From the NCBI GenBank assembly GCA_965178125.1, contig OZ237739.1, positions 186,001-250,000 of the forward strand: DNA of 64,000 bases, given 5' to 3'. A program made the translations under genes and the position numbers. Positions within the stretch are counted from its first letter, which is position 1. Every line of letters starts with the position of its first letter. The notes beneath the pieces were generated by a model. That model had not been told where the DNA came from. It did not search any database and saw only the letters and a list, made by a program, of their open reading frames with translations. This document shows positions 15,071-55,433 of the stretch, piece after piece. This DNA is from Bilabrum cf. latius (taxonomy: Eukaryota).

Positions 15071-16396
15071 TCACTCTGGCTTGTAGTACCTGCTGGGCAC
15101 AAAAGGCATCTTGCTCACCGTGGCCTGCCCCATCCTGCCGCGCACCTCCACCTGCAGCTCCGTTCCGTTCTTGTGGTGACCCTTGGTCACATACCCCATC
15201 GAGATGGGCTTCTTCAGGTGCGGACTGAACGTCCCAGAGGTCACCACGCCGATCTCCTCCCCTTCCTTGGAGAAGAGCTTGGCCCCGTCCCTGGCGGGTG
15301 CCCCCTTCACCAGGAGGCCCACCCTGCGGCGGGCCCACGACTTGCCCTTGATCTCGCCCACGATGCGGTCCGCACCCGGAAATCGCATGTCCTTGCGCCT
15401 ACTCTTCGCCACGGTCCAGCTCAGGTTCGCCTCCGCGGGGGAGGTCGTGCCGTCGATGTCGTTGCCGTACAGGCACAGCCCAGCCTCGAGCCGGAGCACG
15501 TCCCTGGCGGCAAGCCCCGCCCCCAGGGCACCCTCCTGTCCCATGAGCGACTGCCACACGTGCACCGCGTCCTCCTGGGCCACAGAGACCTCGAACCCGT
15601 CCTCGCCCGTGTACCCGCACCGTGTGACGAGCGCGCTCCTCCCCGCGACGGTGGCCTCGAACCCCCGCATGAAGGGGGTCTGCTTCAGGACCTCCTCGCC
15701 GGTTTGGCCACCCTGCTGGTCCAGCAGCGCCGCTAGGCCGCGAGCTGCCCCTGGTCCCTGCACGGCCACCAGCTGCCTGTCCCCAAGGTACTCGTACTCT
15801 GCCTCCACACCGTCCCTGGCGCGCGCAGCCTCGAGCCGCGCGTCGATGTGGGCCATGTCGCCTGTCTTGGTGGCGCCGTTCACGACCATGTTCACGAATC
15901 CGAGGGGCTCCTGCAGGTTTGTGATGACAGTGTCGTCGATGATGCCGCCGTCGTCGTTCGTGAGCAGAGACAGGCAGGCATCGCCGCTGCCCAGGCCGGC
16001 CACGTCACCCACCACAAGCGACTCGATGAAATTCACCGCGTCCTTGCCTCTCCACCTGAGCTGACCCATGTGGGACACATCAAACAAAGAAAAACATCCG
16101 TCTGTTCTGGTGTGAACAGTGCTCTGCACTACGCCGTCCTTGTACTGCACCGGCAGCTCGTACCCCGCGAACGGTACCATCTTCCCTCCCAAGGCCACGT
16201 GCTCGTCGTACAAGGCAGTGCGTAGCAATGGTTCAGAAGATAAAGCCCTAGCCTGCGAAAATTACTCTCACACAAACGAAGCTCAAACGTAGACGCGTGA
16301 ATAACGACGGCTCTTCTGCAAGATGGCGATCCTCACTCCAAGTCTTCCATTCCGCGCAGCGAATCGTGCCACCGCCAAAGCCCTGGTAGCAAGCAT
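15071..16396 (-). CDS. gcvT: Mitochondrial glycine cleavage system T protein (aminomethyltransferase); join(15071-16252,16337-16396)
   Basis: RTALYDEHVALGGKMVPFAGYELPVQY, FDVSHMG, TRCGYTGEDGFE and GLAARDVLRLEAGLCLYGND. An 84-nt phase-0 GT-AG intron removes an in-frame TGA and attaches an Arg-rich presequence. No TAG codons. Ends TGA. Confidence 0.96.
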
Positions 16397-17705: not shown

Positions 17706-19820
<2,115 letters not shown>

Positions 19821-19967: not shown

Positions 19968-21278
19968 TTACTCTTCATCCTCATTTGCGGCGGCATCTCG
20001 CTTGCCAACGTCGTCTTCTTCACCCCCTGCGAGCCGAGCTGCTTCCCCGCCCCCTCTGCTGCTGCTGCTGCTGCTGCTGCTAGCTGCCTCATCGTTTGTG
20101 GCGTGGCCGAGCTTTGAGACGGCCAGTGGCGGCTGATCGCTTCCATCCTACCCTTCAAGTTGTGCCTCGACCTGTGCGAGGGAGGCCGCTGCCAGCCGCG
20201 CGGCGGCCGCGGGCCCTTCCTCTTTGAGCGCATCCCGGTACGCCCGCCCCGTCTTGTTGGCCGCGAAGGCCGCGTCCACATCGATGTCCGCGGGGGGCTC
20301 TAGCCCGTGCTCGCGCATGGCTGCCGCGATGCTCCCGTGCTTCCTCGCCAGTGTGACGAGCTTGCCCCTCGTCTATATGTTGCTGCGCTTCCCTTCCATG
20401 CACCGGGACAGCATGTTGGCGTCGGTTGAGCCACCCAGCTTCACGATGGACTCCAGCAGCTGCTTGGTCTCGGCTCCCGACCACGCCCCGAAGCGGAAGG
20501 ACTGAAGGTCCTTGGACCGAGCGCGTGACGAGTGATCGCCACTGCCTGTGTCCACGGCAAACCTGTCCTTTGGGTCCCCGCTGCATGCCTGCTGCGCCCC
20601 ATCGCTGGATCCTGGCACCGGCTCAATTCCATCGGTCAGGTCGCTGGTGTCGAGCCCCTGCGCCTCCGCCGCTGCCCGCAGCCTGGATTGGGCGAGCCGG
20701 GCCACTCCAGCCGGTACCCCGGTGTGGCTTTCCGCTACCTGGCTTTGGACGGTTGCGAGCACATCCGGGTCGGCAAATTTAGATGGGACTCTTGGCGCAA
20801 TTTGGTTCCAGGCCAGCATATGCTGTGTTGCATCGTGCACCTTTTTGGCCCGCTCAGTATCGCTCCAGGAATGCGCTCTTCGAGCGCGACGCTCAGGAAA
20901 CTCCCCTGCAGTGTACGCCTGGACATCTCTGATCTTCCCCAACATTTTTACGTTCTCCTAAAGCCTCTCCATATATCTGCGAGTTGCGAACAAAGGCTGG
21001 AACTGCGGATTGGTGTGTGTCTTGAAGCTCGAGAGCAATGGCACGACAGCTCAACAATCTTACAACAAAGCAGAATGGATGGCCCCAGCCTCTATCGTAT
21101 CCTTTATCGCAATAATGAGAGCCTCGTTCTCGAGCAAAACCTACAGCGCGCGAACGGTAGGGAGGGTTTGATTGTTTTGCTGGTTTGAATACGAGAGAAA
21201 GTTGCAACTGGGACACAGCCTGTGGGAACTCACGTGATCCACTGCATCGCACACAACAGGTGGAACTTCCTACTGCAT
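19968..21278 (-). CDS. SSXT/SNH (SS18/GIF-like) domain + Myb/SANT-like protein; introns 21141-21233 and 20977-21063; start uncertain
   Basis: Spliced VLLENEALIIAIKDTIEAGAIHSALLYMERL[Q]ENVKMLGKIRD fits the SSXT pattern (LDEN..LI..I...G....Y...LQ.NL). GAWSGAETKQLLESIVKLG is Myb-like. Ends TAA. Confidence 0.7.
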
Positions 21279-27258: not shown

Positions 27259-29712
27259 TTACTTCTACTCCAGCTGCTACTAACCCTGCTGCTTCAGGAG
27301 CGCCTCGGTCGCAAGCGCGATCAGGCCGGCGCTCGGCCTCTTGGCCCCTGCCTCCAGCAACACCCTCGCGCACTCCTCGTGCCCAAACAGCATGGCGGCC
27401 TCTAGCGGGGTCACTGCGCCGCATCGGGGGGTCTCGCCCTCCATCTCCAGCCCGCCTGCCAGCTTGCCCAGCCTCAGCCGCTTGCCCAGCTCCAGGGGCC
27501 TGCCATTGCTCGCTGCTCGGAACACCCTCCCCGCGTCCCTGTGCGCCTCATGCGCCCGCCTGAATGCAAGCAAATCGTGCTTCCTGACGGCCGCCCTCGC
27601 CGACTTCACCCCGCGCACCCTCCCAGCCAGCCTGCTCCCCACCAGGAACGGCGAACTGCCTGCCGACAGCACCGCATCCATGATCCCTTGCTTTGCCATG
27701 GTCCGCAAAGCGTCCAGGCCCAGCGTCACGCGGCCAGGGCGGGCCATGCCCCGTTGCTGCCAGTGCTGCAGTTCCTCTCGCGCCGTGTCAACGATCCAGT
27801 TGCTCAGGCTGCACATGAGTGCCTCAAACTCTAAACACCACCGGGGTATGCCGGGCTGATCGAGGGGGTCGTTGTTACTCGGCCAGAGGGGTATAGAGGG
27901 GTCTCGAGCAGCCTCGGTGATGGACTGCTGACGCGCTTCCAGTGTCTGGCGCGCCTTCAACGCCGCCCCTTGAAGCTCTCGGAGGGACGAAGGGGCTGCA
28001 GCTGGCAATGGCGCCGGCTTTGGCGCTTTATGGGCACCTGAGTCTCTTCGAGAGGCAGCGCGCACGGCGGCCGCAGCGGCCGCAGCGGCAGCAGCGGCAG
28101 CAGCGGCAGCAGCGGCGGGCCGGTTGTGCGATTCAGCAAAATGTCCGGCGGAAGCTGTGTGGGCTGCAGCAGCTGCAGCGGCAGCAGCGGCAGCAGCGGC
28201 GGGCCGGTTGTGCGATTCAGCAAAATGTCCGGCGGCAGCTGTGTGGGTGAGTGAAGCCCTAGTAAATGCAGCAGGCTTAGATGTAGATTTATACGCAGCG
28301 ACCACCGCTGAAACAGCGTCTGCACTTTTTTTGGTGTGCAACCGTGTCGGGGCGGGATCCACGACGTGGTCTAAAGCCGCCTGCTCGAAGAGCGTCAGTG
28401 TCTGCGCGAAAGCAGGCTCGCTTGCTTCGCTCGAAGTGTCCTCAGTACTCTGCTCTGCCTGCGATCGTGGCTCGTTGCCTGCACCTAGGGCCTGCATGAA
28501 ATCGAAATTTGCTGCGCGAATGTCCGCGGCGAGCGCGCTGCAGCGACACGTCAGTACCTCACTCTCGACCCTCGGGCCGCTGCAGCGACACTTCAGTACC
28601 TCACTCTCGACCCCGCTACCACCACTGATGGGGCCATCGATGCCGCTGGCAATCCGAAGTAATCGGATCCTGAGAGCCAACTTCTAAAGCGATGTGTCAG
28701 ACTTTGCGCGAAGCTTGGCGCTCTCGTCGTGGCTGCATTCTGCCCTCTCTACAAGCACAGCGTTTGGCTTGTAGCCGTCGGGACAGACCACCACGCTGCG
28801 CAGCATCGGGTGCCTGGCGAACGCAGACGCTGATTGCGATTTAAGGCGCTCGTACGGGTCCGGCTTGGGCTCCCTTTCTTCCTCCTCTGCGCGGTGCCCG
28901 TACATCGCATAGTAGTCGTCATCCACTGGTGGACTCTCTTCCTCATCCTCGTCCTCGTCCTCGTATAGATCCCGCGACCAAATGACCAGTTCCCGCAGAG
29001 ATACCATGCCTGCTGCCTAAAGCAAATGCGAAGTCTCGAGGGAAGGCTCTTCATAGGGCTACGAGATGGCCCCGATGTGAAGCACCCGAAGCGAGCAGTT
29101 CCTGCTCACCGACGCCATGAACTCCGTCAGACCCGAACAGGTCGAGAACATGCACGGCCCTCTAACAAGACTAGGTTCTAGCTGGAGTCCAAACGCGGGC
29201 AAACAGCTGCGGGTGTCGCTGGTGAACCGCAGATCCTCGATGGTGTCATTGCGAGCTAGGGCAGCTCCCAAACTGGCTCCGGTTTCTGTATGACGATCTA
29301 AAGCCTCGCATTCTTGTGTCAACACCACCTGCAAATGCTTCAGAGTACGACTCTTGAGAAGCAGGATCGCTAGGTCGGCCCAAATACCGAAGTTGCCCGA
29401 GGCAACGATCTGCAGGCTTTCTAGCTACGCCGCCATAGCCGCAAGCTTGAAGATGGATTGCAGCATGACATCCGGAAGGGCGACATCACATTTAAATTGC
29501 CGAAGTCTTTGGGTGGCAAACAGGATGGGCAGGAGGTTTGCAAGCAGTTCTTGCCCACAGGTGCCATACTTCGATGACAGTATTTGAATAGAAGTGATAG
29601 CTTTGCTAGACGCCAGCTTGTCAAGGATGCCTTGAATGTAAACATCGTTTTCCAGATGCTGGACATCTACTTCTAACCAATGCAAGCACTCGATCACGCG
29701 GGGAGAGCTCAT
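27259..29712 (-). CDS. N-terminal LRR-like + C-terminal ankyrin-repeat protein, ~817 aa
   Basis: Four ORF fragments in one frame joined by TAGs. LRR-like SRTLKHLQV, NDTIEDLRF and NCSLRVLHI. Ankyrin TPLEAAMLFGHEECARVLLEAGA. Tail KQQG-TAG-TAG-QLE-TAG-K-TAA. Confidence 0.8.
28070..28250. repeat. Internal tandem duplication encoding HTA(A/S)AGHFAESHNRP + poly-Ala twice
   Basis: gcgggccggttgtgcgattcagcaaaatgtccggcgg occurs twice about 81 bp apart. Confidence 0.85.
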
Positions 29713-32800: not shown

Positions 32801-34447
32801 CCCAGCGGAGGCTTCTCCGCCGCTTGTGCAAAGGCGCGCTCGATCGAGGCTCCCAGGGATCTGGCGTGTTCCAGCAAGGCCTTGTTGTGATCCTCCGTCG
32901 GCCAGTCGCCCAGCAGTGCCACATAGCCCCCTGTTGGGCGCAGTCGATCCCGCAGCAGGCCGCCTGATCCCACTGCTGCGGCGCCCTGCACTGCGGGGGT
33001 CGCGCCTGCAGAGCTCCCCCACTCCACATTGTCTGCGCCCAAGCTACCAGCAATACTTCCTGACGCGCGGTCCCCTGCCTTGTTCCCTGGGTCACGCGGA
33101 TCCCCGAACACTGGCTCGAGAGAGAGCTGTCCGTCCACTGCGGATCGCCGCCACGCGAGCCTCACGTGCAGCACCTCGGACCCGCGATCGCTCACACCAG
33201 CAGGACCACCAAGCACCGGCCCGAGCGAAGTCGGAGCGGCTCGGACGGGATCAGCCGCAGCTGCCGCCGCCTCGCACTGTTCCCTGGTGGGCCAGCACCA
33301 GCTTGCGGCCGCGACGGAGTTCACCGCGTCGGCCCAGCGCTCCTGCATTGTCTTACCATTACTCTGTTTCCCTTCGCTGATTCTGCCCGCATCGGCTGGT
33401 GCGTCCTCACTTGCTGTTGCTGCCACCATTCCCACCCCTGCCCCCACCCCTGACCCTGACCCTGCCTGCTCTCCATCGGTGCCACTGGTGGGCGCAAGCC
33501 CGCCCCAGCCGTCCCCGGTCTCGTCTATGCCGGTGGCTGGATCACTTGTTGATGGGGTACATGTGGTGCCCCAGTAGTCGTCATCACCGGCACCCTGCTC
33601 CGATGCGCCCCAGGGCGACGGCCAGCTGTCGCCCCCGCCTGCACCAGTGGCAGCAGGAGCTGCTGAGATTCTCGCTCGCCAGTGCGACTCGGCGCTTCTG
33701 ACGGCCTACGGTGGAAACACAGCGTCAAGCGGTACCGCGGTTATTTCTGCAGCCTTTTCTGTGACTCGGCGCGCGGCAACAATCGGTGGCGGCAGCTCGA
33801 TGCGCAGCGGACACCTGCCATCGGAGACCCTCCACGACAAAATCAAGCCGTCTGCGTACTCCAGGGTAGAGAACCGGACTAGCCACGATCCGCTCTCCAG
33901 AGTTTGAGACAGAATCAACTCCGAGGCTGGCCGGTACTGCCGCCCCTGAAAGCCGGCAAATGCGCTTTCCAGGCAGAGCATGCGCCACGCCGCGGCGGCC
34001 ACCACCCATCCAGCGTCTGGTGGCCCACCACCGCGACTAGCGGGAGAATCTCCCACTGGCAGCTGGATCATCAGTCCTAAGCATTGTATGGCATCAATTA
34101 ATGACGAAAGATGCACGAGGCCTGTCTCGCGTTCCTCGTGGCTCACTGAACCCTCTTCACCCATCGCGCCGACTGCAATCTTCCAAGCGCTGACCCCTCG
34201 GCGCACCTGCGCTGACGGCCAAGCAGGTAAATGCTTGCGAATGCATGCCTCTATTTGACGACTCAAGCTCTGCCATGTGCGGCACTGCAGCTGCCGGGTA
34301 CGCGACCTGCGAGGCGTGGAATCCGTCAGATTTCAGCACTCCGGTGAGGCTTTCACAACTGAAGAGGGCCTGCGCCGATGAAGTCAAGGCTTACTAATGG
34401 GTTGTTAAGGTCGGTGTGCACCACCAATGCAAGATTTGCGGTAGCAT
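29848..34447 (-). CDS. ~1500-aa protein with two SH2-like modules; paralogue B of 21598-26833; intron 34307-34394; start may be 34447 or 34516
   Basis: One frame with only TAG interruptions. GFQGRQYRPASELILSQ...GSWLVRFST...GLILSWRV and SDEVRRRV...PGAYALRQSST, with several blocks collinear with paralogue A. Ends TGA. Confidence 0.7.
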
Positions 34448-39325: not shown

Positions 39326-42256
39326 ATGGCGGAGGCCAGATCTTTCGGATTCATAAATGCACTGAAAAATAAATTGGGGTGAGGTGCATCGATCCCGGAC
39401 CAAGAAGGCAGGTCTTTGCAGATCCACATTTTACCCTGAAGCCCACCGGCCTCTTGAAATCGCTGCAGACTGGACCCGGCTCAGGAAACATGCGATTGGC
39501 TGAAGTTGCGAGAAGCTATCAAAGAGCGATCCAAAGACAAACCGTTCAAGATGATTTGCAGGGCCTACCGGGTTGCACTCGGATTGGCCTTCCCGGCGGC
39601 CCGCCGCGACGGCGAAGGTGGTGCTGCAAGTATGCCCTAGGCAGAGCGATTCAAGCTGAGCAAATTGCTACAAGTTCTGACCGTAGTTTGTGGCGATGAG
39701 ATCGGTGCATTCGAAACGCAGAAAGACGTCGGTGCGGTACTAGTTCTAGCAGGGCGTCGAGTGGATGCTTTGCGAACGGCATACGGTCTATTTGGATTCC
39801 AGGGGGCTTGTGACCAAGACACAGTCGAGGCAATCGTAGATTGCTGCCAGCCGTAGCCTGTGTTCCGGGGCAGTGGCGACGGCAGCGCCGTTTGGCGCGG
39901 AGGGAGGTGGGCAGCGCACATCACGAACACCGACGACGATCCGGCGTGCCTGGCTGCGACACTGCACGCCCGCAGGGGCCTCACAACGCAAGCAGGCAGC
40001 ATGATGGACGCAAGAGACAGCTTCGAAGCATTCCGGCAGATCTTCGAGCACAAGCTAAGCTGCAGCGACGAACAAGCAGATCTTCGGGGTGCAGCCGGCC
40101 CCTACCGCTGTTCTGGGCCCGACACCATGGTGCAGGTGCAGATCCGCATGCAGAAGAAAACAGGCGGGGCTGCATAGGGCGGCGCAAGCGACTCAAGGGC
40201 AGGTGATCGAGCAGCAGTCGACGGGCAAGCTAGTGATGCCGACTCGGAGGACCCGTTCGCCGGCTACGAGTGGGTCCCTCATGTGCCCGGTCTACAAGAG
40301 GAGCAGCTGCAGTGGGCCATCGGGCGGTTCCAGCGTGCCATTTTTGGGGCGCGTGGCGGTGGCAACGCATGGGGTGGGACCGATGCAGAGCTGAGCATCC
40401 CCAACGGGCCCGGCACGCCCATCTTCGCCATTGCTCTTGCGTTCTTCCTGTCGGACGCGCACAGCTTCCGGCTGTGCATGCAGGTGCCGATGGTGTTTCA
40501 AGGCGAGGCACTCAGGGCACTGGCTCACGGCATCAACCCCAAAGCCCTCAACCACGCGGTCTTTAGATTCGAATCGGAACACTACTAGGAGGATGACACG
40601 CCACTGGCCGGTGCCGCCAGTGCTGGCATCCCTGTTTCCTCCGGTGCCCATCGGGTCGCATTCGCCATTCGCATGGCCAATGGCGTGGGCAGTCCACCAG
40701 CTCTCTCGAATGCACGGAGCCGCCTGGACACACGCGACCTCTACGCCTACCTGCACGTCAGGGGCGACGGTGACGCGAAGAGCATCCACAGGGAGAAGGA
40801 TGGCGCTTGCAACGTGACAATCATCCACAACACCCACCAAATTCTCGGGTCCGACGAAACCCTGGCGAAGCAGGGGGTCATTGTGACGGGTGCAGACATG
40901 GTGTACCTAGAAGACCTCCGGCCCAAGGTACCGGTTTGGCAGCTGCACGGTAATTTGCAGCTCGTGCCTCTGGACTGGTACGCAAGTCCTCTCGAAGTAG
41001 ACCCGAAGCACACAGACGGCATGCGGATGCAACAAGTTCGGCTGAAGCAGATGGGTGTGCGCGTGCCGGTCCGTGATGCTAGCGGCGGTTCAGGTTCATT
41101 CGCAACCAGCGCGGTCCATCGACCGCACGTGGTCCAGAGAGAGGTAGGAGGGCAGTTTGAGGCAGAGGTGGCGGCGGCCGCGGTCCGCCTGGGTGCCCAT
41201 GTGCAGGTGCTGAGCGCGCCGCCAAACGCCGTCGGTCCGAAAGAAAGCTCGCTCGTCGCATATTCCGAGGCAGCCGCCAGGACCAGTCGTGGGCTGAAAG
41301 GGGTGCTAGAGGAGGCCATGGGACAGGGGCGTGGTTTCGACGTGCTGGAGGTACAGTTCTCGGGGGCGGGCGAGGCGCACCGATTGCGGGAAATGGGCAA
41401 GATGGCGCGAGAATCCCAGTCTAGGGCCAGAGCGAGGGGAACCCAGGGCGCACGGGCTCGGGCACAGGCAGGAGGCGGGGCACCACCGGCACAGAGTCGA
41501 GTCGAAGTCCACGATCCTGCTCACACCCGGCGGGCCCTTGCATCCGCTGGTGTGTCCCCTCCCGCGATTCCAACGCAGTTCATGGCCGTTGACGAGGACG
41601 AGGGAGAACGGCCTCGGTCCGGTGATGCACCTTCGTTCGCACCTGCACCTGCGCCTGCATCTGCACCTGCGCCTGCGCCTGCACCTGCACCTGCACCTGC
41701 ACCTGCACCTGCACCTGCACCTGCACCTGCACCTGCACCTGCACCTGCACCTGCACCTGCACCTGCACCTGCACCTGCACCTGCACCTGCACCTGCACCT
41801 GCACCTGCACCTGCACCTGCACCTGCACCTGCACCCGCACCTGCACCTGCACCCGCACCTGGTACTGGGGCTGGTGGGGAGTGGGCGGACGCAGAGAATG
41901 AGGTTGGGGATGGGTCGGGCCGGTAGCGTTGGTTCCATGGCCACCAGGGAGGAATCGCAGCCGTGTGCCCGAACTTCTTGGATAAGCTCGGCGACTTTGC
42001 AGCGAATGAGGTTTCGGGGGGCGGGGCCGGTTCGTCCAGCGATGAGGGGGAATCCCCGGGGGACGGGGAGTCTGTACCGCTTGTTCGCCGCGCTATGGAG
42101 AACCAGCCGCAAGGAGCGCCAGCCAAGGGCGCAAAACGGGCAGCAGGGGCGACCGCAGGCACCGGCAGCCTGCTGCAAGGCGCCTGCGCTCGGCTGCTGG
42201 CCGGCGGTCACTCCTTCACAATGGTAACGGTTCGCGGTGCACCCCCTCCGAAGTGA
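39326..42256 (+). CDS. Unrecognised family, tandem paralogue 1 (~946 aa); join(39326-39378,39469-42256)
   Basis: 53-nt first exon, 90-nt phase-2 GT-AG intron, then one frame with TAGs only. Core DPFAGYEWVPHVPGL...PNGPGTPIFAIALAFFLSDAHSFRLCMQVPMVFQGEALRAL. Ends TGA. Confidence 0.8.
41639..41860. repeat. (GCACCT)~37 microsatellite, encodes poly(Ala-Pro)
   Basis: Directly visible, with a few variant units at the ends. Confidence 0.97.
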
Positions 42257-42409
42257 CTGATTCACACAAATATTCAGCCCTTCTCTAGCCGTAGACAAGT
42301 CCAGCATTGCGAATCTCCGATCCGATCGGTATTTGATGCCTCAGCCAGCAGACTGGTCAACCCAGGTGGAGCACATTCTCGCGGCCCTGCAGAACCAATT
42401 CGGGCAAGC

Positions 42410-45400
42410 ATGGACAAGCGGGGCCTTGATGCATGTATGGATGAGCCACAGCTTGTAGCATCCCTGCGTACCGCGCTAGGTCAAGCATTCGGTCGGCGCG
42501 AAGCTTCAAGTAGCACTGAGGAGCTAAGGACTGCGCTTTCGGTGTTCCCAGCGAAGTACCAAGACTTCAATAGCAGTGTTAAAGAGGTAGCTCACATGGT
42601 CTTAGAGCTACGGAGCAGGTTTGGGCTTCACGGGTTCCAGGGATTGAAGTCGCCAGGCGAAGCCGAGGCGATCTTGGAATGCACATAGCCTGCTCTTGCT
42701 AATTCGACCCATCGCGGCGGCAGATGGCTTGCATACATTGACAAAACAGCACCACGATCCCGATACGTGATCACCGTTGCAATGCACTCTCGATCTCATG
42801 GGGACGATTCTGCCAGAACGGACAGCGGCGACGCCGTGCTCAAGGCTAACGCGGAGCAAGCAGCCGCCCCTAGTACCACCAGCGGCGGAACAGGGTCCTC
42901 AGTAGAGCCTGTGCAAGCTGTTCAGCCCAAGGGCGCGCCCACGGTCGCGTGGTAGCTGGATAAACCCGCTTTCGAGGCAAAGCTGGTTCCATCGGATGCG
43001 GCTGTACACGGTGGTGCAGCGACAGCGGCGACACACGATGCGGAATACCCTCGCGTGGAGCTGTTCCGTGAGCCGTTACCGCCTTTACAGGTTTCTGGCC
43101 CGCAAGGGAGCGAAACAGGCGCGCAGTGCAAGCAAGCCGGCCTAGACCTGCAAGACAAGCTGCAGGGGGGCGCGCGCGGCGTAGCGGCAGATCTCTACCG
43201 CTGTCGCCACCCCGATGGCATGGTGCACGTTCAGATCCGTCTGCGCAGAAAGGTGCAGAGAGGCGCGGCAGCCCCAGCCTCTATCGGTGCTGGTGGCGGG
43301 GCTTCCGCCGCAGATGCAGACTAGGCCGCTTCGGCGGCTGCGGAGCCCCAGGACCCGTTCGCCGGCTACGAGTGGGTCCCTCACGTGCCCGGGCTAGAAG
43401 AGGAGCAGCTGCAGTGGGCCACGGATCGGTTCAAACAGCACTTCGAGGAGAATCTCGGTGGCTTCGGGAATGCGTGGGACGGGTGTCGCAGCGATTTGAG
43501 CGTACCCAACGGGCCCGGCACGCCCATCTTCGCCATCGCACTGGCATTCTTCTTATCGGACGCGCACAGCTTCCGGCTGTGCATGCAGGTGCCGATGGTG
43601 TTTCAGGGCGAGGCACTCAGGGCGCTGGTATTGAGGAACTTCGACCTTCCTGGGGCGCTGGTGCAGCAGGCGCAAGTGCTTTAGGCGCGAGGGCGTGAGG
43701 GAGACCCCGAGCGGATTCCATTCGCGATCCGGATGCCGTCTAGCACAAGCTTGGGGCAGGAGCTCGATGCCCGCGACCTGAAGGCCTCGCTGTTCCTCGT
43801 TGGGTCCAAGCGGCTCGGTGAGGATGGAGTGGAGGTCGCCGCCGCATCACAGATCACGGTAGAGTACATCCACCCAGAGCCGGGCGAATACGGAGGCGAC
43901 GGCGAGTACTACAGAGAGTCCAAAGACCCGATCGACCTGCTCGCCAAAGGGATGGACACGCTGTGCGCAGCGGTCACCATGCAGGACATCCTCCAGCTGG
44001 CAAGCAAGGAATACCCGAACGGCATCGCAAAGTACGCGGCGAGGGCAGAGCCGCTCGATGTGCACGCCCGGTCTCCTCCCAGCAAGCCTACAGCCAGCAT
44101 GCGCATGAGGGCGGTCAGGCTGGGCGCCGGCGAGGCGCTGCGATCGCTCGGAGTACAGCCGCTGCCGGTGCCCGCAGCAACTGCAGCCGATGTCGATGCT
44201 GCAGTTCGACGGACTATGTGCGGCTCCTCGGGTGGCAAGCGGCCTGGCAAGCGCGTTGTTGTGAGCCGTGCTGCAGGACAAAGGCCTGGCGCACTGGGCC
44301 TTGCCGATGCCTCTCCAACCCCCCATGACACTCATGACAGCCTGTTGAGGGCTGCGGTCAGGCACGGCAGAGGGATCATGGAGGTCCACTATGCGGGCAA
44401 CACTGTCGGTCAGGGTACAAGGGGTGGCGGCCCGGGAGCTGCAGGGGACTCTTTAGAAGAGGGAGCCGTTGGGGCCGCGATGGCGCACAGGAGACCGTTC
44501 CGGCTGGCGCATGTCGGGGCGGGGGCGGCGCTGGGGCCATCGGCCGGTCTGGCTGGCCTGCAAGGGACATCGGTTCCTGCGGAAACAAGGCATCTGTTCG
44601 GTGGTTGTGCAGGCACGAAACGTGGGGAGCAGGTCGGGGCGGCTGAGCCGAGCGGGGGCTCCAGCGGCCCGCTTCACAGCATCCCGCATCCAATGGGAGA
44701 TGTCAGGCGCGGGGGCGGCGGCAGCGGTGGACCTGGCAGCGGAAGCAGGGGAGGAAGAGGTAGAGGAGGAGGAGGTGGACGCGGTAAACCTGGCAGCGGA
44801 AGCAGGGGAGGAAGAGGTACAGGAGGAGGTGGAGCGGCAGGTGGTGCTGCTCCAATGGAATCGGGCGAGTCGGATGGTGACGAAATGGGTGCAGGTGCAG
44901 GTGCAGGTGCAGGTGCTGGTGCTGGTGCTGGTGCTGGTGCTGGTGCTGGTGCTGGTGCTGGTGCAGGTGCAGGTGCTGGTGCTGGTGCTGGTGCTGGTGC
45001 TGGTGCTGGTGCTGGTGCAGGTGCAGGTGCTGCTGGCTGGCCTCCAGACGGTTGGGCGGCTCAGGGGCATTGGGGTGGGGTGCCACAAGGGGGGCAGGCT
45101 GCGATGGATGGCGATGATGGTGATGATGGTGATCACGATGATGGTGACCAGAAAGAACCTTCGGGCTGGGGTCGATTCTTTAGTTTGCCAGTAGTGCTGC
45201 CGACAGCATAGGGTGGTGGCAGGATGGATGACGAACCGGAGGAGGTGCCCCCCGATGCAGAAGAAGCTGCCAGGCAGCTCGCATTCGAAGAGTGGCAGGC
45301 ACGACAGGAGAGGTTGCAGGACGAACGGGAAGCGAGGGCTCGCGGGGTTCCCGTCGGCGCCGTGTTCTCTGGGAATACGTTGCCCTGGGAAGGCATTAGG

Positions 45401-45607
45401 CGGAGCATCGGGCGTGGGGGCCAAAGAGGTGGAGGTGCCCGCGCACAAGGGGGGGTCGCAGGGGGCCGCGGCTCCGGCTCGGTGCGCTTGCCAGGCCGCC
45501 GTGTTGTAGGGGCCGGGCGTGGTCTCGTCGAGTGGGCGGGACTTTCTCTCCTGGCCAGCGGCCAGCATTTCACGATCGTGACCGTGTCAGGCCCAGCCCC
45601 ACAGTAA
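42410..45607 (+). CDS. Unrecognised family, tandem paralogue 2 (~1065 aa); start uncertain
   Basis: Six ORF fragments in one frame joined by TAGs, with the same core and the same C-terminal motif. Ends TAA. Confidence 0.8.
44888..45031. repeat. (GGTGCW)24 microsatellite, encodes poly(Gly-Ala)
   Basis: Directly visible mix of GGTGCA and GGTGCT. Confidence 0.95.
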
Positions 45608-46312
45608 CGGGTGATGCTCGTCCCACTACTAGACCTCTCTAGAGGCCCCGCACTCAGATTCGGATGCATAAAGCAAAGCAGAAGAGCCACATCAATGAAA
45701 AAACCTGTGTACCGGGCCTTGGCTCTCGAGTCCGGAATCCAGAATCTAGATTCCAGAAATACAGAAATACAGAAATACATTGTTGGGTAAAGATTCCGTA
45801 AGCACCCAGATGCACCGTCACCCCCGAGGGGGTTTGGGTGATCACCTAGATCCAGAGGAGCCCTAAAACAAAGGACTACAAGACCCCCGACCCTTTCAGG
45901 CCAAGGGCCCCCCGTTCTCAGCCTATGCCGCCGAGTTCCCATTCTTCGCCATCAATGTGGTCCCCCACAGGCCCCCAGCCTGTTGCCTTCACAAGGAGAA
46001 AGCATACAGGTGCGGAGCGTGTGCCCGGCACAAGGCGCGGTCCAGTCCCACATCAGGGTCCCCGGTCGAGACCCACCATTTCCTCCTCCATGACCGTCTC
46101 TGCGTCTCACGATCCTTCAGAGAGGCGAGCATGCACGCGCTCATGCCTTTGGCCCATTGCCTCTCTATATCCTTTAGCAAGCCGTGGGGTTTGAAAATCC
46201 GTCGTTCCAGATTTTGGACGATTAGTAACGTGCCACAGTGCCATCACCATGATGCGCGATTCTGGTTTTCATGCACCGTCTAGACGATCTTTACACTTTG
46301 AGTCAAATAAGC

Positions 46313-49300
46313 ATGTCTACAGCCAGCACAAGAGCGCAAAACCGGCAGAGGATGGATAATTAGTCGTAAGTTCCCTCAATTTTGGCGTTCTTAAAGGTAT
46401 GCGTGGGCCCAGCAGGTATTTTCCAAAATGCCCATGCCGGCATCTAGCGCAGTCCGACCAAACCAACGCACTTCAAGGTCCAAGATCTATTCGAGATCAT
46501 CGATAAGACCGGATGTGCTGATAAGGACCCCATCAAAGCGGCTTGGTGCGTTGCTCTCGGAATCGCGTTCGATGTACGAAAGACGGCTAGGTACAGCGAG
46601 CTGTTGGCGGTCCTCTCCGCTCTGCACCCCCAGTCTGACAATCTGGAGGATGCTCTGGTTGAAGTGGGCCGGAAGCTGCATCAGCTTCGATCCTCACTCG
46701 GCGTGTTTGGATTCCAGGGCGTCTGCAGCCGCGCCAAGGCGAGTGCGATCCTCGAGCTGACTAGACCCCATGGCTACGGTGGCCGGTGGTTGGTGTACAT
46801 TGACCGAGACACTGCTTTGAGTAGTCGGTGTCTATCGCTGTTGGTGGACTCACGGCGGTCCGAAGGACCAAATGTCATCGCCTTTGACCCCCACCGCCTG
46901 GACCAGGAGGCCTTCGAGAAGAAGCTCAAGAACGCGCCGGCGCCCAAGCAAGACACAGGTCCCCCGAGCAAGGCAGCACCCGGCAGCAGCCAGGCTGCAA
47001 CGGCTAAGGATGCCAAGCTCGCTCACGGCGCAGCGCTGCTGGGCAAGATCGTGGGGATGCATCCGGAGAGTCCTATCCTCGCGCACATCCGCATGCGGGA
47101 GGCAACTCGGCCCAGGGCCCCGCAGGTGGTGCCGTACCAAGGAGCCGAGGATGTGCCTGCAGCCAGCGGCGCAGGGGCGAGCACGCCGGTGGGTGCATCT
47201 GCGAAGAAATCTGCCCCGGGATCACCTGGCCAGGCCGCGGGGGGAGCCGCAGCCGCGACTGCAGCCACCTCGAGTACTTCATCAACCGATGGCGATGCTG
47301 CGGACCCGTTCGCCGGCTACGAGTGGGTCCCTCACGTGCCCGGGCTACAAGAGGAGCAGCTGCAGTGGGCCGTGGACCGGTTCTAGGGTGCAATCCTTGG
47401 GCAATACGACGGCGACAACGCATGGAAGGGCACCAAGACAGGCTTGAGCGTACCCAACGGGCCCGGCACGCCCATCTTCGCCATTGCTCTTGCGTTCTTC
47501 CTGTCGGACGCGCACAGCTTCCGGCTGTGCATGCAGGTGCCGATGGTGTTTCAGGGCGAGGCACTCAGGGCGCTGGCGAAGAAAGACCCCAAGAAAGAAT
47601 TTGACATCGAGAAGGCCTTGGAACAAAAGGTGGAGGTGCTTGGGGATGGCTCCAAGTCTGTTCCATTCGCGATCCGGATGCGGACTGGAGTACACGACAA
47701 GCCATAGCTAGCCGCGCGCGACCTCAGGTCCTACCTGTTCGTGTGGTGCGAAGACTTCTCGGGCTGGAACGATGCAGCTTCGGCGTCGCTTCAGTACCTC
47801 CACCCGGAACCGAACAAGTACGACGACGCGGAATTTGTCAAGCAATCGGCGGAGGCTCTGACACTGTGGTCCAACGGGCAGCACCTGGGGGCCATGGCAA
47901 TTACCACGGCTGACCTGTTGGCATTGACCCGCAAGGACTACGTCAACGGAATCAGGAAGTACGCCGACCGCGCTGTGCCCCTGGACGTGTACAGCCAGCG
48001 AGACGACCCCGTTCCGGGCACCGAGCAGATGCTCATGCGGGCAGTCCGGCTTGGCGCCCACAAGGCCCTCCGTGATCTTGGGATCGAGCCCGAAACGTCC
48101 CAATCGGGCGAGAAGCAAGACGCTCCTGATGCAGCCTCATCGTCGGCTGCACGGCCTGCTTTCAAGGCGGCAGCAACACCGGCAGGGACAGCGGCGGGCG
48201 GCGGGGCCAAGTCAATGCCGGACAAAGGCGGTGAGACCGACCCCGAGGTGGAGCTCGGGGCGTCCTCCAGCTCTGGAGACAAGACTGTGACACAGACAGC
48301 AGGGATGGTGGGTGGCCAAGGCGACAAGGAGGTTGTTCATGTTGTGGGGGGTCGTGCCGAAGACGGTGATGGTTTGGAGCCTCAGGAAGGCTGGGAGACT
48401 GGCAGCCAGGCTGGTGCTGAGTAGGGTGGAGGCGGGGGCGAAGGCTGGCCGACTGGCGAAGGCAGCGGAGGCCCTGGCTCTGGCTCTGGCTCTGGCTCTG
48501 GCTCTAGCTCTGGCTCAAGGTCTGGCTCTGGCTCCGGTCAGAGGCGGGCCGGTGACCCACAGGGTGAGCCGACTCCGAGTCTGAGTCTGAGTCCCAGTGA
48601 TATGCATGCCCTTGCCATGCGACTCGGAGCAGATGTTGACCTGACGGAGGCGCCTGCGTCTGATCCATTGACTCAGCTGCAGGCGCAGGGTGCTGGACCA
48701 GGCACTGTCATCCACGGAGACCCAGTTGGTACAGCGATCGTGCAGGCCACTGTGCTCGGCAGGGCACTGACAGTGTTGGACTTCGGAGCTTCCTAGGGCA
48801 CTGCTGGTCCGGTGCGAGCAGCTCCAGGCGATGTCTCTGGTGATGGTGGCGTCGGTGCTTTTCCAGAACTGCCTTCCTTTCCTGCAGAGGGCAGGGGGGC
48901 TGCTCCCGTGCCCGGCGAAAATCGAGCGGGTGATGGCACTGGGGGCGGCACACCTGGAAGGACAGATGGGGCAGGTGCGGCAGGTGGGCAAGGAGGTATA
49001 GCAAGAGACGAAGGATACAGATTACGTGACAACGAGGAACGGGAATTGCGCTTCGGCGATCGCATCGCTGACCCCGGCGTCAATGTGCCTGATGACGCCG
49101 TAGGCATTTGGGCGGATGCCGCGGAGCTAATGGCAGGGGTGGGGCGCGGCGAACCAATGCCCCGCCACAGGTGGGAACTGTTGCCTGACTATGCACCCGG
49201 TCAATAGCAGGGTCCCGACGTGGACGCCGATAGCGTGGGTCCGATCGACCGGGCCCAGTTTGAATCGTTCTTCGAGTAGGAGCAGCGGAACCGGGGGGAT

Positions 49301-49576
49301 GCACACAGTGACGATGGCTCTGGTGGCGCTGCGTCGGGTGCCCGGGGCAGGGTGAGGAGGGATGGGGTTGGGCCAGGATAGACGAGGCCGGGCACGGCGG
49401 GGGCATCACTGGGAAGGCTGCCTGCTGTGCCCCCTGCTGCTGATGGTGCCATTGCTGCTCGAGGGGGTGCGACTGGGTCGCGGACCAGGGGGGTAGCGGC
49501 GTGGGCGGCTTTGCTGCAGGTGCGGGCTGGCAGGCCGTGCACGTTTGTGTCCGTGAAGGGCGCGAGGCCCCGGTGA
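46313..49576 (+). CDS. Unrecognised family, tandem paralogue 3 (~1058 aa); join(46313-46365,46453-49576)
   Basis: 53-nt first exon and 87-nt phase-2 GTAAGT...CGCAG intron, the same layout as paralogue 1. One frame with TAGs only. Ends TGA. Confidence 0.8.
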
Positions 49577-49740
49577 CCGGGCTAAGAAGTGGTAACGCCC
49601 AATCATGATGGCAGCCTGATCGCATCTGGCAGTAGCAGACCGGAAGCACGCGGCTCTGTCTCAATGAAAAAACCGCTCACAGAGCCTCAGCATCAACATT
49701 TATTCCCCCATCCAAGACAATTGTAAAACTGTTACAGGCA

Positions 49741-50388
49741 ATGGAGTACATTAAGAAGCAGCTTGAGCCTCTCAAAGTGGACCGATCAAAGTACGACGAT
49801 GATGCTGAAATGCCGGAGTATCCATACCTCGAGGTGGTGCGGCACGTTAGCTTTCGCAGTGAGATGGCAATTGCAAATCATCTTCAATGATAAATTCATT
49901 CCAAATTGTTTCAAGCCGCGCAGTTTCATGTCCCTCTCCAGTGATACGCAGCGGCACAAGTTGGGGCGGTCGTCGGCTTGACTTTGGCACCACTCGTGTC
50001 CCGGCTCCGAGGCAACAGGCTGTCGTTGCGGTGGGGCTCAATGCTTGGGACAGTTGGGGGTGCATTGGCAGGGGTGGCTTGGGCGGCCGGGCGCATGAGA
50101 CAGTTGGAGGTGGACGAGGTAGACGACAGAGCGTATCGAATCGTTCATAACAAGGGTCAGGTGCGCCTGGATGAGCTATCTGGCATGGGAGCAGCAGCTG
50201 GATTCTTCGGCGGCCTAATTTTTATGCGTATGCCGATCGTGGGTGCGTGCGTGGGCCTCGCAAGCGGGCCGGTGCTGCTCGCAGCAGAAAAGGCGGGCGT
50301 GGAGTTTCCCGCGCTGCCGGATAGCGCTGCTAAGGCAAAGGCGGAGGCTAAATAGATTGCTCGTGAATTTTCGGAAGGGAGACAGTGA
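49741..50388 (+). CDS. DUF1757-like small membrane protein; join(49741-49858,49952-50388)
   Basis: EMPEYPYLEVVRHVSFRTAQVGAVVG...DDRAYRIVHNKGQVRLD resembles DUF1757. 93-nt phase-1 intron. TAG 50353 is read through to TGA. Confidence 0.65.
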
Positions 50389-50566
50389 ACTTGCATCGGA
50401 TCCATGATGATGTCCCCGTCTTGCGACCAACCGCTGGCGTACGGATCGGTCCGTTGCTCCAAAATCTCGCCCACTGTGATTCTTTGGCAGCCTGTTCTTG
50501 GTCACTGACCCGTGCGCAAGCACAAGTGAAATTGAATCCGCCTAATAAAAACAAAACTCAAAGCGA

Positions 50567-52594
50567 ATGGGAGAGCCAATGTGGACCGACCGTCGGATGG
50601 CCTTCGATCCTCCCGAGCCATCCGGCAGCCGAGCCAGCGATATTGCAGACCAAACCGTGATGGTGGGGCCGATCGGTTCAGCAGAGGACGTCGCAGTGGG
50701 TAAATTGGTTCCATGGCTAACGAACCGCGCGAGGGCCCTAGAGGACGACAAGGCTCGGCTGAGGCAGCTCCTTACTCAAGCGCACTGCGCTATCGAAGCA
50801 GAGGAAGCGAAACGAAGCTCGGTGTCTGTAAACCTGAAAGTCGCCAAAACGAACATCGACAATTTAAATAATGAGCTTCGTGTGGCAAAAGTTCGAAACA
50901 AGGAACTCGTCAAGGTAGTTGAGTCGCTCAGAGGCGCGGACACCGAACGCGGGGGCTATCACGCAAAAGTCGTGGAGGAGCGTCGCACTGAGCGCAGAAT
51001 GGTGGAGCGGATGGCCGACAAGCAGCAAGCCACGGAGCAAAGGCTCTCACAAATGCAAGAGTCCCACACAAAGGAGGTGCAAGACTTGGAAGGGGCGCTG
51101 CTGTCCCTCCGCGAGACGATGCAGCGCGAGATCGACGGGCTGCGAGAAGGCGTGGACGAGGCGGCCAGAAGGGAAGCGGCGCTAAAGGCGCGGTGCGACG
51201 ACGTGAAGAGCGAGCTGATGCGCGAGCAGGCGCGCCACCAGGACACGATGGCTCGCCTGGCCGTCGCGAAGGAAAAGGAGCAGGCGGCCATCCGACAGGC
51301 TCACGCGGTAGGCAGAGAGGCGGAGGAGGAGGTGGAGCGGTGCGCTGAGCTGAAGCGAGCGGCCTCTGAGCGTGTGCGTGGCGTGGAGGACACGGAGAGT
51401 CGCCTCTCGGAGGCCATGGCGCTGCTTCGGTCCCTCGAGGCGGAGAACGCCGACCTCCGGAGGCAGGTGAGGGAGCACCAGCAGAGGGAGGTGCGGCTGA
51501 GCGACCTGCTTCGGGACAGGTCCGGAATGGTGGCGCAGGAGCAGGCGAGGAAGCGGGAGGCGGAGCGGCAGCGTCGGCTGGAGCACATCGCCGGGGTGGA
51601 CCGGAGGCGGGAGGCCGAGGTGCGAGCAAGGGAGCAGGAGCAGCTGCTCCGGCAGCAGCACAGGGAGCAGAAGGAAGAGGAACAAGCAAAAAAAGAAAAG
51701 AAGAAGATTATCGCGCTGCAGCGCATCATGGGTGGACGCGTCTCCGCATGGAAGCCCGGTGCGGGAGGTCGCGGAGCAACTGCTCGGCTGCTCCGCGCGC
51801 TCGGCACTGAGGCGCCCAAGGCCTCCACCATGTCCAAGGCCGGTGGCAGCGGCGGCGGGCAGCAGAAAAAGCAGCGCAAGACCATTTCGAAGACGTCCCG
51901 CGGTCGAGCGCAAAAAGCGTCACCTTCCAAGAGCAAGCACAAGGAGGCAAAGGCAAAAGCAGGGAAGCCCGGTGCCTCAAAGGTGCAGCATTCGCCATCC
52001 ACATCGCAGGAGGGGCTTGGGGACTCCGCCGCAGCGCCCGCTGCATGCGGCCGGTGGATCAGAACGGGTGCTGAGGCGGTGTAGGTGCGGCTGTGCGGAC
52101 CCGACGACAGGGAACCGGAGCCGTTAATCCCCGCCACGGGCCCCGGCGGTCTCAACGAGCTCAGGGGCGGCAGCAACCGCCCTGCCCCGAGCGAGGTGTG
52201 GCGCAGGAGCAGGGCCAGAGCCAGGGCCAGCAGCGCGGAGAGGGCGAGGCGACTGGGGCCCGCTGGGCTGCCCAGCGGGGTGAAGGGCGTGCAGCGGCAA
52301 TACTATGACTAGCCGGTGGCGCAGGGGCGAGGGCATCCTGGCTGTGATGAAGCCGCAGCGGTGGAAGGTAAGGGCGGTGCTGCGGGTGAACCCACTGGCG
52401 GCTGGGCGGTCTTTGAGGGCGAGGTGGATGGCAGTGGCCACGCGCACTTCAGCCGTGCCGCGGGTGAGCACGAGCCCAGGCATGGGCGCCCGGTGTAGGT
52501 GGTGTCGACCAGGGGCAGAGGCCGCAGTGGTGCTGAAGAGGGCGAACGAGGCATGCCTGCAGCGGATCTGAAGTCGCCTCGTGTGTGGAGGTAA
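50567..52594 (+). CDS. Coiled-coil protein with basic/low-complexity C-terminus
   Basis: About 350 aa of E/R/Q/A heptad-rich sequence. The frame continues through TAGs 52082, 52310 and 52496 to TAA. Confidence 0.75.
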
Positions 52595-52671
52595 GAAAGT
52601 ATACAGCCAAAGGAATTTTTCACAGATCCGAGTCGTAGCGAAGGTATTGACTGTAGAAGAGCAAACAGTAG

Positions 52672-55242
52672 TCACCAGAGTTGCCACCAAGGCTTCTTCT
52701 TCTTCCTGTTGGCTGCTGCACGAAGGGCCGCAATTTCCGCATGCATGCGTTGCCGGTACTGCTGGAACTCCCTGTCCTGTTTCGCCATTTCGGCCTGCGT
52801 CTTCTCGTAAGCCTCCTTGGACTCCTGCATGCTCCTCTCGTGCTCCTACTAGAACTGCGCTGCATCCTCCTGCTGCTGACGGATGCTCTGCTCAAGCCTC
52901 TCTCTGTCGTCCTTGAAGCGCTCGGCATCCTCCACGCTGCGCTTCGCCGCGGTGACCTGCATGCTCAGCTGCCTCATGAATCGATCCATGTCAGACTCTG
53001 CGTGCTTGCAGACTGCATCGATGCCCTCGTTCTCGTCCACCACCTTGGTCAGGATGCCGGACACGTCGGCGGGATCGGCCTGCACTGTTCCATCCTCGTC
53101 AACGGAGAGACAGTCCATGGCCAGCAGTAGCTGCACCATGGGCTACAGGCTCGGCACAGCACTGGCAAAGCCACCCGCAGCGGCCTCAGCAGCGCCACCG
53201 GCTGCAGCACCGCCAGCTGCTGCACCTGCCCCTGCGCCAGCATCAGCCTCGTGGACCGCAGCCCCATCCAGTGCCACGCTGCACAGCTGCTAGCAGGCCT
53301 GATGCCGTACCATTGTGAAGGTAGTACTGCAAGCAGCTGCATGACCATCATCGCCTGCAACTCCACGGAGCTGGCCCTCGGCATCTGCCAGCAGCTGCAC
53401 GCACACGGCACGCGTCCCCTTTGCTACCTCCCTCGCAATTGTGATACCACGTAGCTCTTCTTGCAGCTCCTCCAGATGGACCACCCGCATCTTTCGAGAC
53501 GTAATCACGGCTTCGGGATCGCTCGCATCTTCTCCGTCGGTGCTGCTCATGGTCTCCTGCAGCTTGAGCTCCAGCTGCATCATCTGCTGATGCCTTGCGT
53601 TGTCTGCCTCCCCACGCAGAATCGTGCACACAGACTGCAGCAACAGTGCCTGCCTGTCCCGTGCTTTGCTGATCATCGCCTCTTTCAAGTTGCGGAAGGA
53701 CTCAGCCACATCACCACCATCTGCAGTCACGAGAGCTCGCGCGTCCTCCTCCGAGGCCAATCGATAAGACGCCCGCATGGTCTCGAGAGCCACCTGCACT
53801 GCACGGTCCTGCAGAGCAGCCATGGCGTGGGTTGCTGTCCCCGGCGATGCCGTGCAGTCCATGCGGACAGGTCCGTTGAGTGCCACGAGCGCTCGCTCGA
53901 TAGCCTCGCACAGCTGCTTGGCCGCCGCTGCCCCTGCCTGTGCCTTCATGGTCTCGAGGATGCCCATGGGGCGGAGTGCGTCCGTGGCATCGTTGGCCTG
54001 CTGCACTACTGCAGCCATCACTGCGCCGTAGTGCTGCGTATCGCAAGGCATGCCAGGATTGCCCAGCAGGCACCTTGGTGTCTCGTCCTGCAGAACCGGG
54101 ATCACATTGCGATCCACCATGGCACCGATGGCATCGAGGGCGGCAGAGAAGTCCTTGGGGTACTCCTGGCCGGGACGCAGACCAGCCACGCTTGGAGGAG
54201 GAATACGCGCCTGCCTGCACTGCACGAATACGCTCCGAATCATGGCCCTGGCTCGGTTCCTCTGCTAGGCTGCATCGGCTTCGTAACCCCCGAAGGGGTC
54301 CACGTGCTCTGGCCTCATGAGGGCCTCTTCCGCCTCCTCGATCGTTTGTGTGGACTCTAGCGACATATCACGAGCCACAAGCACAAATGTGGACCGATCG
54401 TTGCTGGTTGCGGCACGGTCACCCGCTGCGGCCCCCCCTTGTGCCGCAGTTCCGGCAGCACCAGCTGCTTGCTGGTCCATCCTGCGGCCCCTGCCCACGA
54501 TGAGAGCGGCATCCAGGATCTGCTTGATGGTATCGAGGACTCTGCTCGTCATGAGCGGGTTCTTCATGTTGGCCATGAACACGCCGCGGCTGCACAGGGC
54601 CAGCCCAGGCAGGACGACCTTCGCGTCGTGCGCCTCGTCCTAGTCCCCGGTGCCCTCAGAGTCGATGACGGCGACAACGCATGCCTCTGATCGACCGAGT
54701 GCGCCTTGCGGGAGGTGAATGAAGCACCCTTTACCACCTTTTGTGCATGACTTGTTGCCATCCCCGACTTCGAACGCAAGCGGCACCTACTCGCCGGACG
54801 CCGGGCACTCGCCGATGCGGACAGCGGGCACGTCTGGATGCAGCTGCTGCAGCCGGACAGCGTCCAAGCTCCCGAAAGCCCGAACCAGAATGGTTTTCAC
54901 GACGTGGTTCAGCATCGTGCTCTTTCCGGTCTAGACACTGCCGTGCACCACGACGGTGAGAACGGGCAAGGCTCGCGTGCTACCCAATCGTAAAATAGCT
55001 CGCAGCTTCTCGGGCTACGTGGCCTCGAATGCGCCCGACTCCAGGTTGGTTCCATACAAATGCACGACACCTAGCCGAACATGGGCCTAAGTTGCCTGCG
55101 CCAAGATAGATTCAGGTTAAGGGCTACTTGGCTGCAGGGACAGTTTCATGAAATCGACCGGAAATCTGAAAGCCTATCGCGTCGAGCACAGCAAAGAATG
55201 GAATCGATGGCTATAGTAACTTACTGGTGCAGCTTCTTCCAT
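52672..55242 (-). CDS. Guanylate-binding-protein/atlastin-like (GB1/RHD3-type) GTPase A; join(52672-55095,55225-55242)
   Basis: P-loop VVVHGSV[Q]TGKST, G2 FEVGDGNKSCTKG, G3 IDSEGTGD, a helical/coiled-coil body and C-terminus KKKKPWWQLW*. The G domain is visible only with TAG read-through. Ends TGA. Confidence 0.85.
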
Positions 55243-55351
55243 GGAGCGTCGTACCGCTAGCTGGTGATTGTTGAGTGCTTCGGTATTATCCAAGAGATTT
55301 TTGATGTCAATTGTTGGGGTGCAGCACTTCCGGTGACGCCGTGTTTCCTCA

Positions 55352-55374: not shown

Positions 55375-55433
55375 GGGAACGCATCAGTACACACTTTCAA
55401 ATAGATCTCAAAGGTCCAACAAGCTCCCAAGCC

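Follow-up and report, generated by a model that had tools for sequence, protein, structure and literature searches.

In the stretch of DNA analysed here (hereafter the window: 64,000 nucleotides, positions 186,001 to 250,000 of the forward strand of contig OZ237739.1, assembly GCA_965178125.1, listed as Bilabrum cf. latius), the codon UAG is translated, as glutamine, and is a third codon for that residue. UAA is not a sense codon in coding interiors and is located where genes end, as seen at four terminators in the window. The proposal of the initial annotation, that UAA is kept as a stop while UAG has become a sense codon, is supported by every test that the window allowed, as well as by a single contig from a relative, and the split meaning of the two codons is confirmed as an observation on this stretch. 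We consider it likely that the organism is a GC-rich, intron-poor eukaryote in which UAG stands for glutamine, UGA is the main terminator and UAA a minor one.

We rebuilt the reading frames between successive stops, with TAG counted as sense, which gave 22 long frames with a total of 17,497 codons. With the standard stops the longest frame of the window has 580 codons; treating TAG as sense uncovers frames of 1,711, 1,701, 1,495, 1,117, 1,069 and 933 codons, those of 900-1,700 codons being open in no other way. Frames of 300 codons or more then hold 31,002 codons of sequence in place of 10,684, and reading through TAA instead of TAG brings almost no gain (12,992 codons). Dozens of TAGs and no in-frame TAA had been noted earlier in the coding exons, and our counts agree: 109 TAG and 0 TAA, as well as 0 TGA, in the 17,497 codons, both zeros being by construction in frames that are bounded by these two codons, and at least 6 of the 109 TAGs lying upstream of the first ATG of their own frame. 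The TAGs are uniformly placed along the frames (Kolmogorov-Smirnov p = 0.28; 14, 13, 8, 12, 11, 4, 8, 10, 9 and 20 per frame decile) and make up about 12% of the glutamine codons of the window.

The residue specified by TAG can be read from conserved proteins and from related copies of the same gene, for which the following features are needed.

17706..19820 (frame 17625-19820), plus strand: intronless DDX41-like DEAD-box helicase, Pfam DEAD and Helicase_C, 7 TAG in frame, ends TGA
19059-19061 (Q479) and 19179-19181 (Q519), plus strand: TAGs of this helicase at invariant glutamines, from the alignment (contexts ..HQRQT.. and ..DVIQEVEY..)
15071..16261, minus strand: glycine-cleavage T protein (GCVT, aminomethyltransferase), Pfam GCV_T and GCV_T_C, 0 TAG, ends TGA
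39326..42256, plus strand: tandem paralogue 1, stop-to-stop frame 39458-42256, TGA at 42254-42256, 5 in-frame TAG
39326-39378 (exon 1, ATG at 39326), 39379-39468 (90-nt intron, GT..AG) and 39469-42256 (exon 2), plus strand: proposed exons of paralogue 1, a model made from sequence alone
42410..45607, plus strand: tandem paralogue 2, frame 42257-45607, ATG at 42410, TAA at 45605-45607, 5 in-frame TAG
46352..49576, plus strand: tandem paralogue 3, frame 46370-49576, TGA at 49574-49576, 8 coding TAG
46352-46365 (exon 1, ATG GAT AAT TAG TC), 46366-46452 (87-nt intron, GT..AG) and 46453-49576 (exon 2), plus strand: exons of paralogue 3, spliced joint seen

Two of the seven TAGs of the DDX41-like helicase fall in its alignable core, both at columns where all nine homologues (9/9) have glutamine. 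Its C-terminus (GDY) is level with the ends of the homologues and is followed by TGA. The alignment of the three tandem paralogues has 17 columns with TAG; another paralogue has CAG at 3 of them, and at the remaining 14 the TAG is aligned with variable residues or gaps. A further TAG, in frame 21598-26730, is aligned with a CAG in a contig of a relative.

This relative was reached through GCVT, whose database matches include one that is 99% identical and one at 80%, the others listed being at 59% or below. A metagenome scan with the 80% relative returned a single locus, contig L001 (4,915 nt, 57.7% GC), on which GCVT and a sterol-desaturase-like gene have the same tail-to-tail arrangement as in the window and both end at TGA. 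L001 also carries a 705-codon frame, running off the contig, which belongs to the family of the window's large frames and contains 4 TAG and 0 TAA. The UAG change is common to the window organism and at least one relative. The search of prokaryote genome contigs with GCVT kept 80 loci, all of them bacterial gcvT at 42-48% identity, and the corresponding search of viral contigs gave 0 loci.

We considered whether UAG could have two meanings, glutamine inside genes and stop near the 3' end of the mRNA as in Condylostoma and Blastocrithidia, so that some genes would end at TAG. The spacers between genes are very short and the apparent 3' untranslated regions (UTRs) as well, as with position-dependent termination, and a TAG stands within 7 codons of the terminator in 3 of the 22 frames. 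These are the frame ending at 27259, which closes with TAG TAG ... TAG ... TAA, and frames 13396-14664 and 29848-34332, with TAG respectively 2 and 5 codons before TGA; about 0.9 such frames are expected from TAG density, so the three may be due to chance. In ambiguous codes the reassigned codon is depleted near the ends of frames. No such depletion is seen here, the last 30 codons holding 5 TAGs where 4.1 would be expected, and if these three genes did end at TAG, a second in-frame stop within 7 codons of each would arise by chance with a probability that we estimate at about 1e-3. Both conserved C-termini, moreover, are at TGA. We judge a dual UAG unlikely, though still conceivable given the short spacers and 3' UTRs.

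TAA where genes end

The 22 long frames are terminated by TGA in 18 cases and by TAA in four, and adding a small spliced gene brings the count to 19 TGA and 4 TAA in 23 models. The initial annotation had arrived at 21 TGA and 4 TAA in 25 models, with the same four TAA positions. UGA is thus the terminator in 19 of the 23 models, and at the DDX41-like helicase and GCVT the TGA coincides with the ends of the homologues. No pattern was found in the context around the stop codons of the window. The TAA terminators are the following.

19968..19970, minus strand: TAA of frame 19968-21050, GC drop 0.63 to 0.47
27259..27261, minus strand: TAA of frame 27259-29847, GC drop 0.67 to 0.57
45605..45607, plus strand: TAA of paralogue 2, homologous to the TGA of paralogues 1 and 3, GC 0.67 to 0.53
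52592..52594, plus strand: TAA of frame 50549-52594, GC drop 0.66 to 0.43, next in-frame TGA 94 codons on

The ends of the three tandem paralogues are the best single case for TAA as a stop. Their C-termini (...SFTMVTVRGAPPPK, ...HFTIVTVSGPAPQ and ...PCTFVSVKGARPR) are aligned column for column, and the ends are in register, paralogue 1 closing with ...FTMVTVRGAPPPK-TGA, paralogue 2 with ...FTIVTVSGPAPQ-TAA and paralogue 3 with ...CTFVSVKGARPR-TGA. The earlier statement that TAA occupies a homologous stop position in these genes is borne out, TAA and TGA being found in the same place.

It could be argued that UAA and UAG both encode glutamine, as in table 6, that TAA is rare through GC-richness and that genes simply run to the next TGA. 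In favour of this, the genome has a GC content of 62%, TAA is less frequent than TAG or TGA when all frames are counted, only four frames end in TAA, and UAR codons are reported usually to change together (PMC5304391). However, codons ending in A are common within the 22 frames, the pairs being CAA:CAG 192:599, GAA:GAG 267:786, AAA:AAG 143:430 and TTA:TTG 31:177. From the CAA/CAG ratio of 0.32, 34.9 TAAs would be expected (Poisson probability of zero 7e-16), and at least 19 (19.1; P = 5e-9) from the lowest comparable ratio, TTA/TTG at 0.175; none is seen. Paralogue 2, if read past its TAA, would carry a tail of 77 codons without counterpart in its two neighbours, which passes into lower-GC sequence and a high-copy repeat.

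Because the original frames were themselves bounded by TAA, which makes the count circular, we re-read the 19 frames first chosen with TGA as the sole stop (16,908 codons). All 16 in-frame TAAs of these TGA-delimited frames are marginal: 10 lie towards the 5' end, among the first 88 codons of a frame, and 6 towards the 3' end, among the last 96; in non-coding shadow frames TAA also occurs in the middle. GC content was then compared between the 90 nt before and the 90 nt after each codon. Its mean falls from 0.656 to 0.500 across TAA (n = 4; a drop of at least 0.05 in 4 of 4) and from 0.654 to 0.548 across TGA (n = 18; 13 of 18), and goes from 0.626 to 0.630 across in-frame TAG (n = 98; 22 of 98), so that TAA differs from TAG in this respect (Mann-Whitney p = 9e-4) and is not distinguished from TGA (p = 0.33). 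Together with the contig that stops 270 nt before the next TGA, described below, these results make a code in which both codons are glutamine highly improbable.

Assembled contigs of four public runs (X1, X5, X6 and X7) were compared with the window over 45100-58499, where X1 is a DNA run and the RNA status of X5-X7 is a guess. The joint 46365>46453, which removes the 87-nt GT..AG intron of paralogue 3, is spliced in X7, and the joint 49858>49952 (93-nt intron, GT..AG) is spliced in X5, X6 and X7, with X1 unspliced across the site. X6 is treated as RNA-like because it has the spliced form of 49859-49951 and because its contigs break at gene boundaries. Two of its contigs, 47547-48460 and 48540-49706, include six TAGs of paralogue 3 with 0 differences, and a third (record 20, 50527-52606) covers frame 50549-52594, with the TAA at 52592, again with 0 differences. 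The TAGs are thus kept unedited in RNA-like contigs, although the RNA nature of X6 is not proven. Record 20 ends 12 nt past the TAA and 270 nt short of the next in-frame TGA, and the DNA run X1 continues past this place, which gives a weak hint of termination at TAA.

We give next to no credence to the possibility that the TAGs are untranslated, as pseudogene lesions, assembly errors or RNA-edited codons: nothing specific speaks for it beyond the default suspicion that any in-frame stop deserves, while 109 TAG against 0 TAA or TGA in the same frames is incompatible with decay, housekeeping genes are affected, independent runs of three study codes have identical letters, RNA-like contigs with spliced joints retain TAG, and the feature is also present in the relative.

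The case for UAA as a minor terminator beside a glutamine UAG nevertheless has several points to its debit. The TAA terminators are only four, all in lineage-specific proteins, and both conserved ends that can be tested (the DDX41-like helicase and GCVT) are TGA and none is TAA. Frame 27259-29847 ends GGT TAG TAG CAG CTG GAG TAG AAG TAA (27259-27282, minus strand), with TAGs 7, 6 and 2 codons upstream of the TAA, and its true end is less certain because of these three TAGs in the last seven codons. Codon-usage log-odds for the 40 codons before and the 40 codons after the stop do not tell coding sequence from what follows it. On L001 there is no further TAA terminator, and the contig is too short to inform on TAA. 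As for the runs, X6 is labelled 'RNA? (probably DNA)', the evidence consists of assembled contigs, and the end of a contig is a poor guide to the end of a transcript. Finally, the 64-kb window contains 0 tRNA genes (ARAGORN; Rfam, which gave 0 matches of any kind) and encodes no eRF1 gene.

Gene content and the paralogue family

The window is nuclear DNA of an intron-poor eukaryote, neither virus nor prokaryote, as is indicated by the spliced GT..AG joints and by the genes for C2H2 zinc-finger, bromodomain, DDX41-like, Fpg and GCVT proteins. Its GC content is 57-64% in every 4-kb bin and 62% overall. Pfam finds eukaryotic families in frames that are opened by TAG read-through, and no family in the majority of the large frames. 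Further genes are listed below.

2696-5131, plus strand: leucine-rich-repeat protein (Pfam)
5371-6516, minus strand: C2H2 zinc-finger array (Pfam)
10169-11713, minus strand: Fpg glycosylase (Pfam)
13396-14664, plus strand: sterol-desaturase-like hydroxylase (Pfam)
about 49745-50300, plus strand: small spliced gene with a 93-nt GT..AG intron at 49859..49951, one TAG 11 codons before the stop, ends TGA
57972-58880, minus strand: bromodomain protein (Pfam)

Genes are closely packed: at 29815-29850 the TGA of one gene is followed after only 30 nt by the first ATG of another frame in the same orientation, paralogues 1 and 2 are 153 nt apart (42254-42410), and two convergent stops lie 77 nt from each other (52594-52672). 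Between 52900 and 56950 the contigs of X5-X7, which belong to other organism codes, and a second form present in X1 differ at many single bases (40 listed and 97 further), and several strains or alleles of the organism are therefore present in the public data.

In paralogue 3 the fourth codon is TAG and the frame is kept across the splice joint, the TAG at residue 26 of the stop-to-stop frame being intronic. The intron proposed for paralogue 1 likewise keeps the frame and matches the other introns of the window in length. Overall identity among the three paralogues is 34-36%, with one core of about 90 residues (47300-47580 in the window) that is almost invariant. The DNA of this core is also near-identical, with a synonymous change at only 14 of 72 invariant residues, which suggests recent duplication, gene conversion or very strong constraint.

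Pfam assigns the three paralogues to no family. A profile built from their alignment gave one match among 1.84 billion representatives, a 113-residue fragment almost identical to paralogue 3, and a scan of JGI metagenomes with the same alignment gave 379 pattern matches and 0 relatives. The fragment comes from the same or a near-identical organism, and the family is an orphan. AlphaFold2 on the three-row alignment yielded a mean pLDDT of 31.7, which is unusable. An N-terminal block (..GFQG..P.A..L(I)L.. followed by ..[FW]L[LVI]R..) is common to five frames of the window, namely 21598-26730 and 29848-34332 on the minus strand and the three paralogues (39326-49576) on the plus strand, and to L001 at 1-2115 (minus strand). 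An SH2 identity for this block was rejected, the likeness being faint and below threshold (Pfam SH2 E = 0.14 in one of five members).

Two microsatellites lie within the coding sequence of the paralogues: GCACCT x37 in paralogue 1 (41639-41861), encoding (PA)n, and GGTGCT x24 in paralogue 2 (44888-45032), encoding (GA)n, runs of which also occur in other frames of the window. The high-copy repeat downstream of paralogue 2 occupies 45757-46204, between paralogues 2 and 3; its word depth in run X1 is 2,585 and 779 (two bins) against about 30 elsewhere, and many loose ends are found at 45872, 45913 and 46204 in all four runs.

Decoding, lineage and known codes

If UAG is read as glutamine and UAA as a stop, decoding would be expected to follow the codes of this kind that are already known (PMC5304391). 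A tRNA-Gln with anticodon CUA would read UAG; it would be one base change away from tRNA-Gln(CUG), and the C:A mismatch would keep it from reading UAA. eRF1, the only release factor, would have lost its affinity for UAG and kept that for UAA and UGA, and the genome would contain no tRNA with anticodon UUA. To separate UAG from UAA, tRNA(CUA) would suffice on the tRNA side, and eRF1 would have to discriminate as well. With public DNA and RNA-like runs at hand, the tRNA set, eRF1 and genome-wide stop usage would be directly readable.

The position of the organism was approached through its two conserved proteins. The best matches of the DDX41-like helicase are 59-65% identical, the named ones being diatoms, brown and yellow-green algae, streptophytes and chytrids. 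A tree of GCVT was built from 37 rows out of 120 listed hits (all 19 that could be named and the top unnamed ones). In it the window clade (support 100/100) stands outside the ochrophyte clade and joins, with weak support, some unnamed records and a single one that bears the label Symbiodinium, which gives no placement. We think it unlikely that the organism belongs to a lineage from which this code has been described before. To judge partly from general traits of the two groups, it is also unlikely to be a ciliate or a fornicate, because of its 62% GC, its introns of 87-93 nt, the many genes on one long contig and conserved proteins of ordinary divergence. An origin independent of the ciliate and fornicate cases is plausible in view of the GC content, the short GT..AG introns and a DDX41 and GCVT without a close named group. 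Amoebophrya sp. ex K. veneficum was dropped as a candidate, being AT-rich and reading all three stops contextually (PMC12005148).

A bolder reading would see a GC-rich lineage without close named relative in the databases searched, which has evolved its own split of UAG and UAA and is the cellular counterpart of the giant viruses with TAG as glutamine, the hosts of which are unknown; UAG might even still be position-dependent, sense inside genes and a stop where only a few codons separate it from a very short 3' UTR. We regard this combination as unlikely. The lineage is nonetheless worth comparing with the code-15 giant viruses of unknown host (PMC13524828), as a lead only.

Since UAG and UAA almost always change together, each independent case of a split tests why they do so. 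The cases in which UAG alone has become glutamine are mostly ciliates, and the sole non-ciliate case reported, Iotanema, is based on a transcriptome; here the evidence is contiguous genomic DNA. Our search of open full text, with subscription journals and supplements outside its scope, found no report of a GC-rich non-ciliate eukaryote with this code. There is also a practical side, as gene callers set to the standard code would shatter the proteome of such an organism, and the paralogue family is represented in the databases by nothing longer than the 113-residue fragment.

The code itself is already known, and the window is probably a genome-backed, non-ciliate and independent case of it. 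The initial annotation rightly cited the fornicate Iotanema spirale, with UAG as glutamine and UAA and UGA as stops (Panek et al. 2017, PMC5304391); its list of precedents was incomplete, however, since the ciliates Protocruzia tuzeti, Hartmannula sinica and Trochilia petrani also have UAG as glutamine with UAA kept as a stop (McGowan et al. 2024, PMC11687900). Iotanema spirale resembles the window in that UAG is the sole reassigned codon, read as glutamine, with UAA still a terminator, and the resemblance is predicted to extend to a tRNA-Gln(CUA) and an eRF1 with weakened recognition of UAG. For the eRF1 of Iotanema the change T32G is reported (PMC5304391). It differs in that UAA is its predominant stop and that the evidence is transcriptomic, whereas TGA predominates in the window (19 of 23 models) and the evidence is genomic, at 62% GC. 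The DDX41 and GCVT proteins of the window are ordinary in their divergence, and their best matches are among records labelled as stramenopiles.

Ciliate genomes are typically AT-rich, with tiny gene-sized chromosomes in Phyllopharyngea, and the window, with about 25 genes on a contiguous 64 kb at 62% GC, looks unlike them. In the three ciliates the same reassignment is repeated and recent, and cognate suppressor tRNAs are reported (PMC11687900). Changes of UAG alone to leucine and to serine are also known. The table 6 codes, in which both UAR codons are glutamine, occur in many ciliates, Hexamita, Streblomastix, ulvophycean algae and Amoeboaphelidium (PMC11687900, PMC5304391); they share with the window the change of UAG to glutamine, but in the window TAA is absent as a sense codon (0 of 17,497) and ends four genes. 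Code 15, finally, has been annotated in giant viruses (GVMAGs V2, PMC13524828) and in crAss-like phages (PMC9523058), and has the same table as the window, with TAG as glutamine and TAA and TGA as stops. The genomes in question are viral, and their hosts either use the standard code or are unknown, whereas the window is nuclear DNA of a cellular organism and contains spliceosomal introns as well as housekeeping genes.

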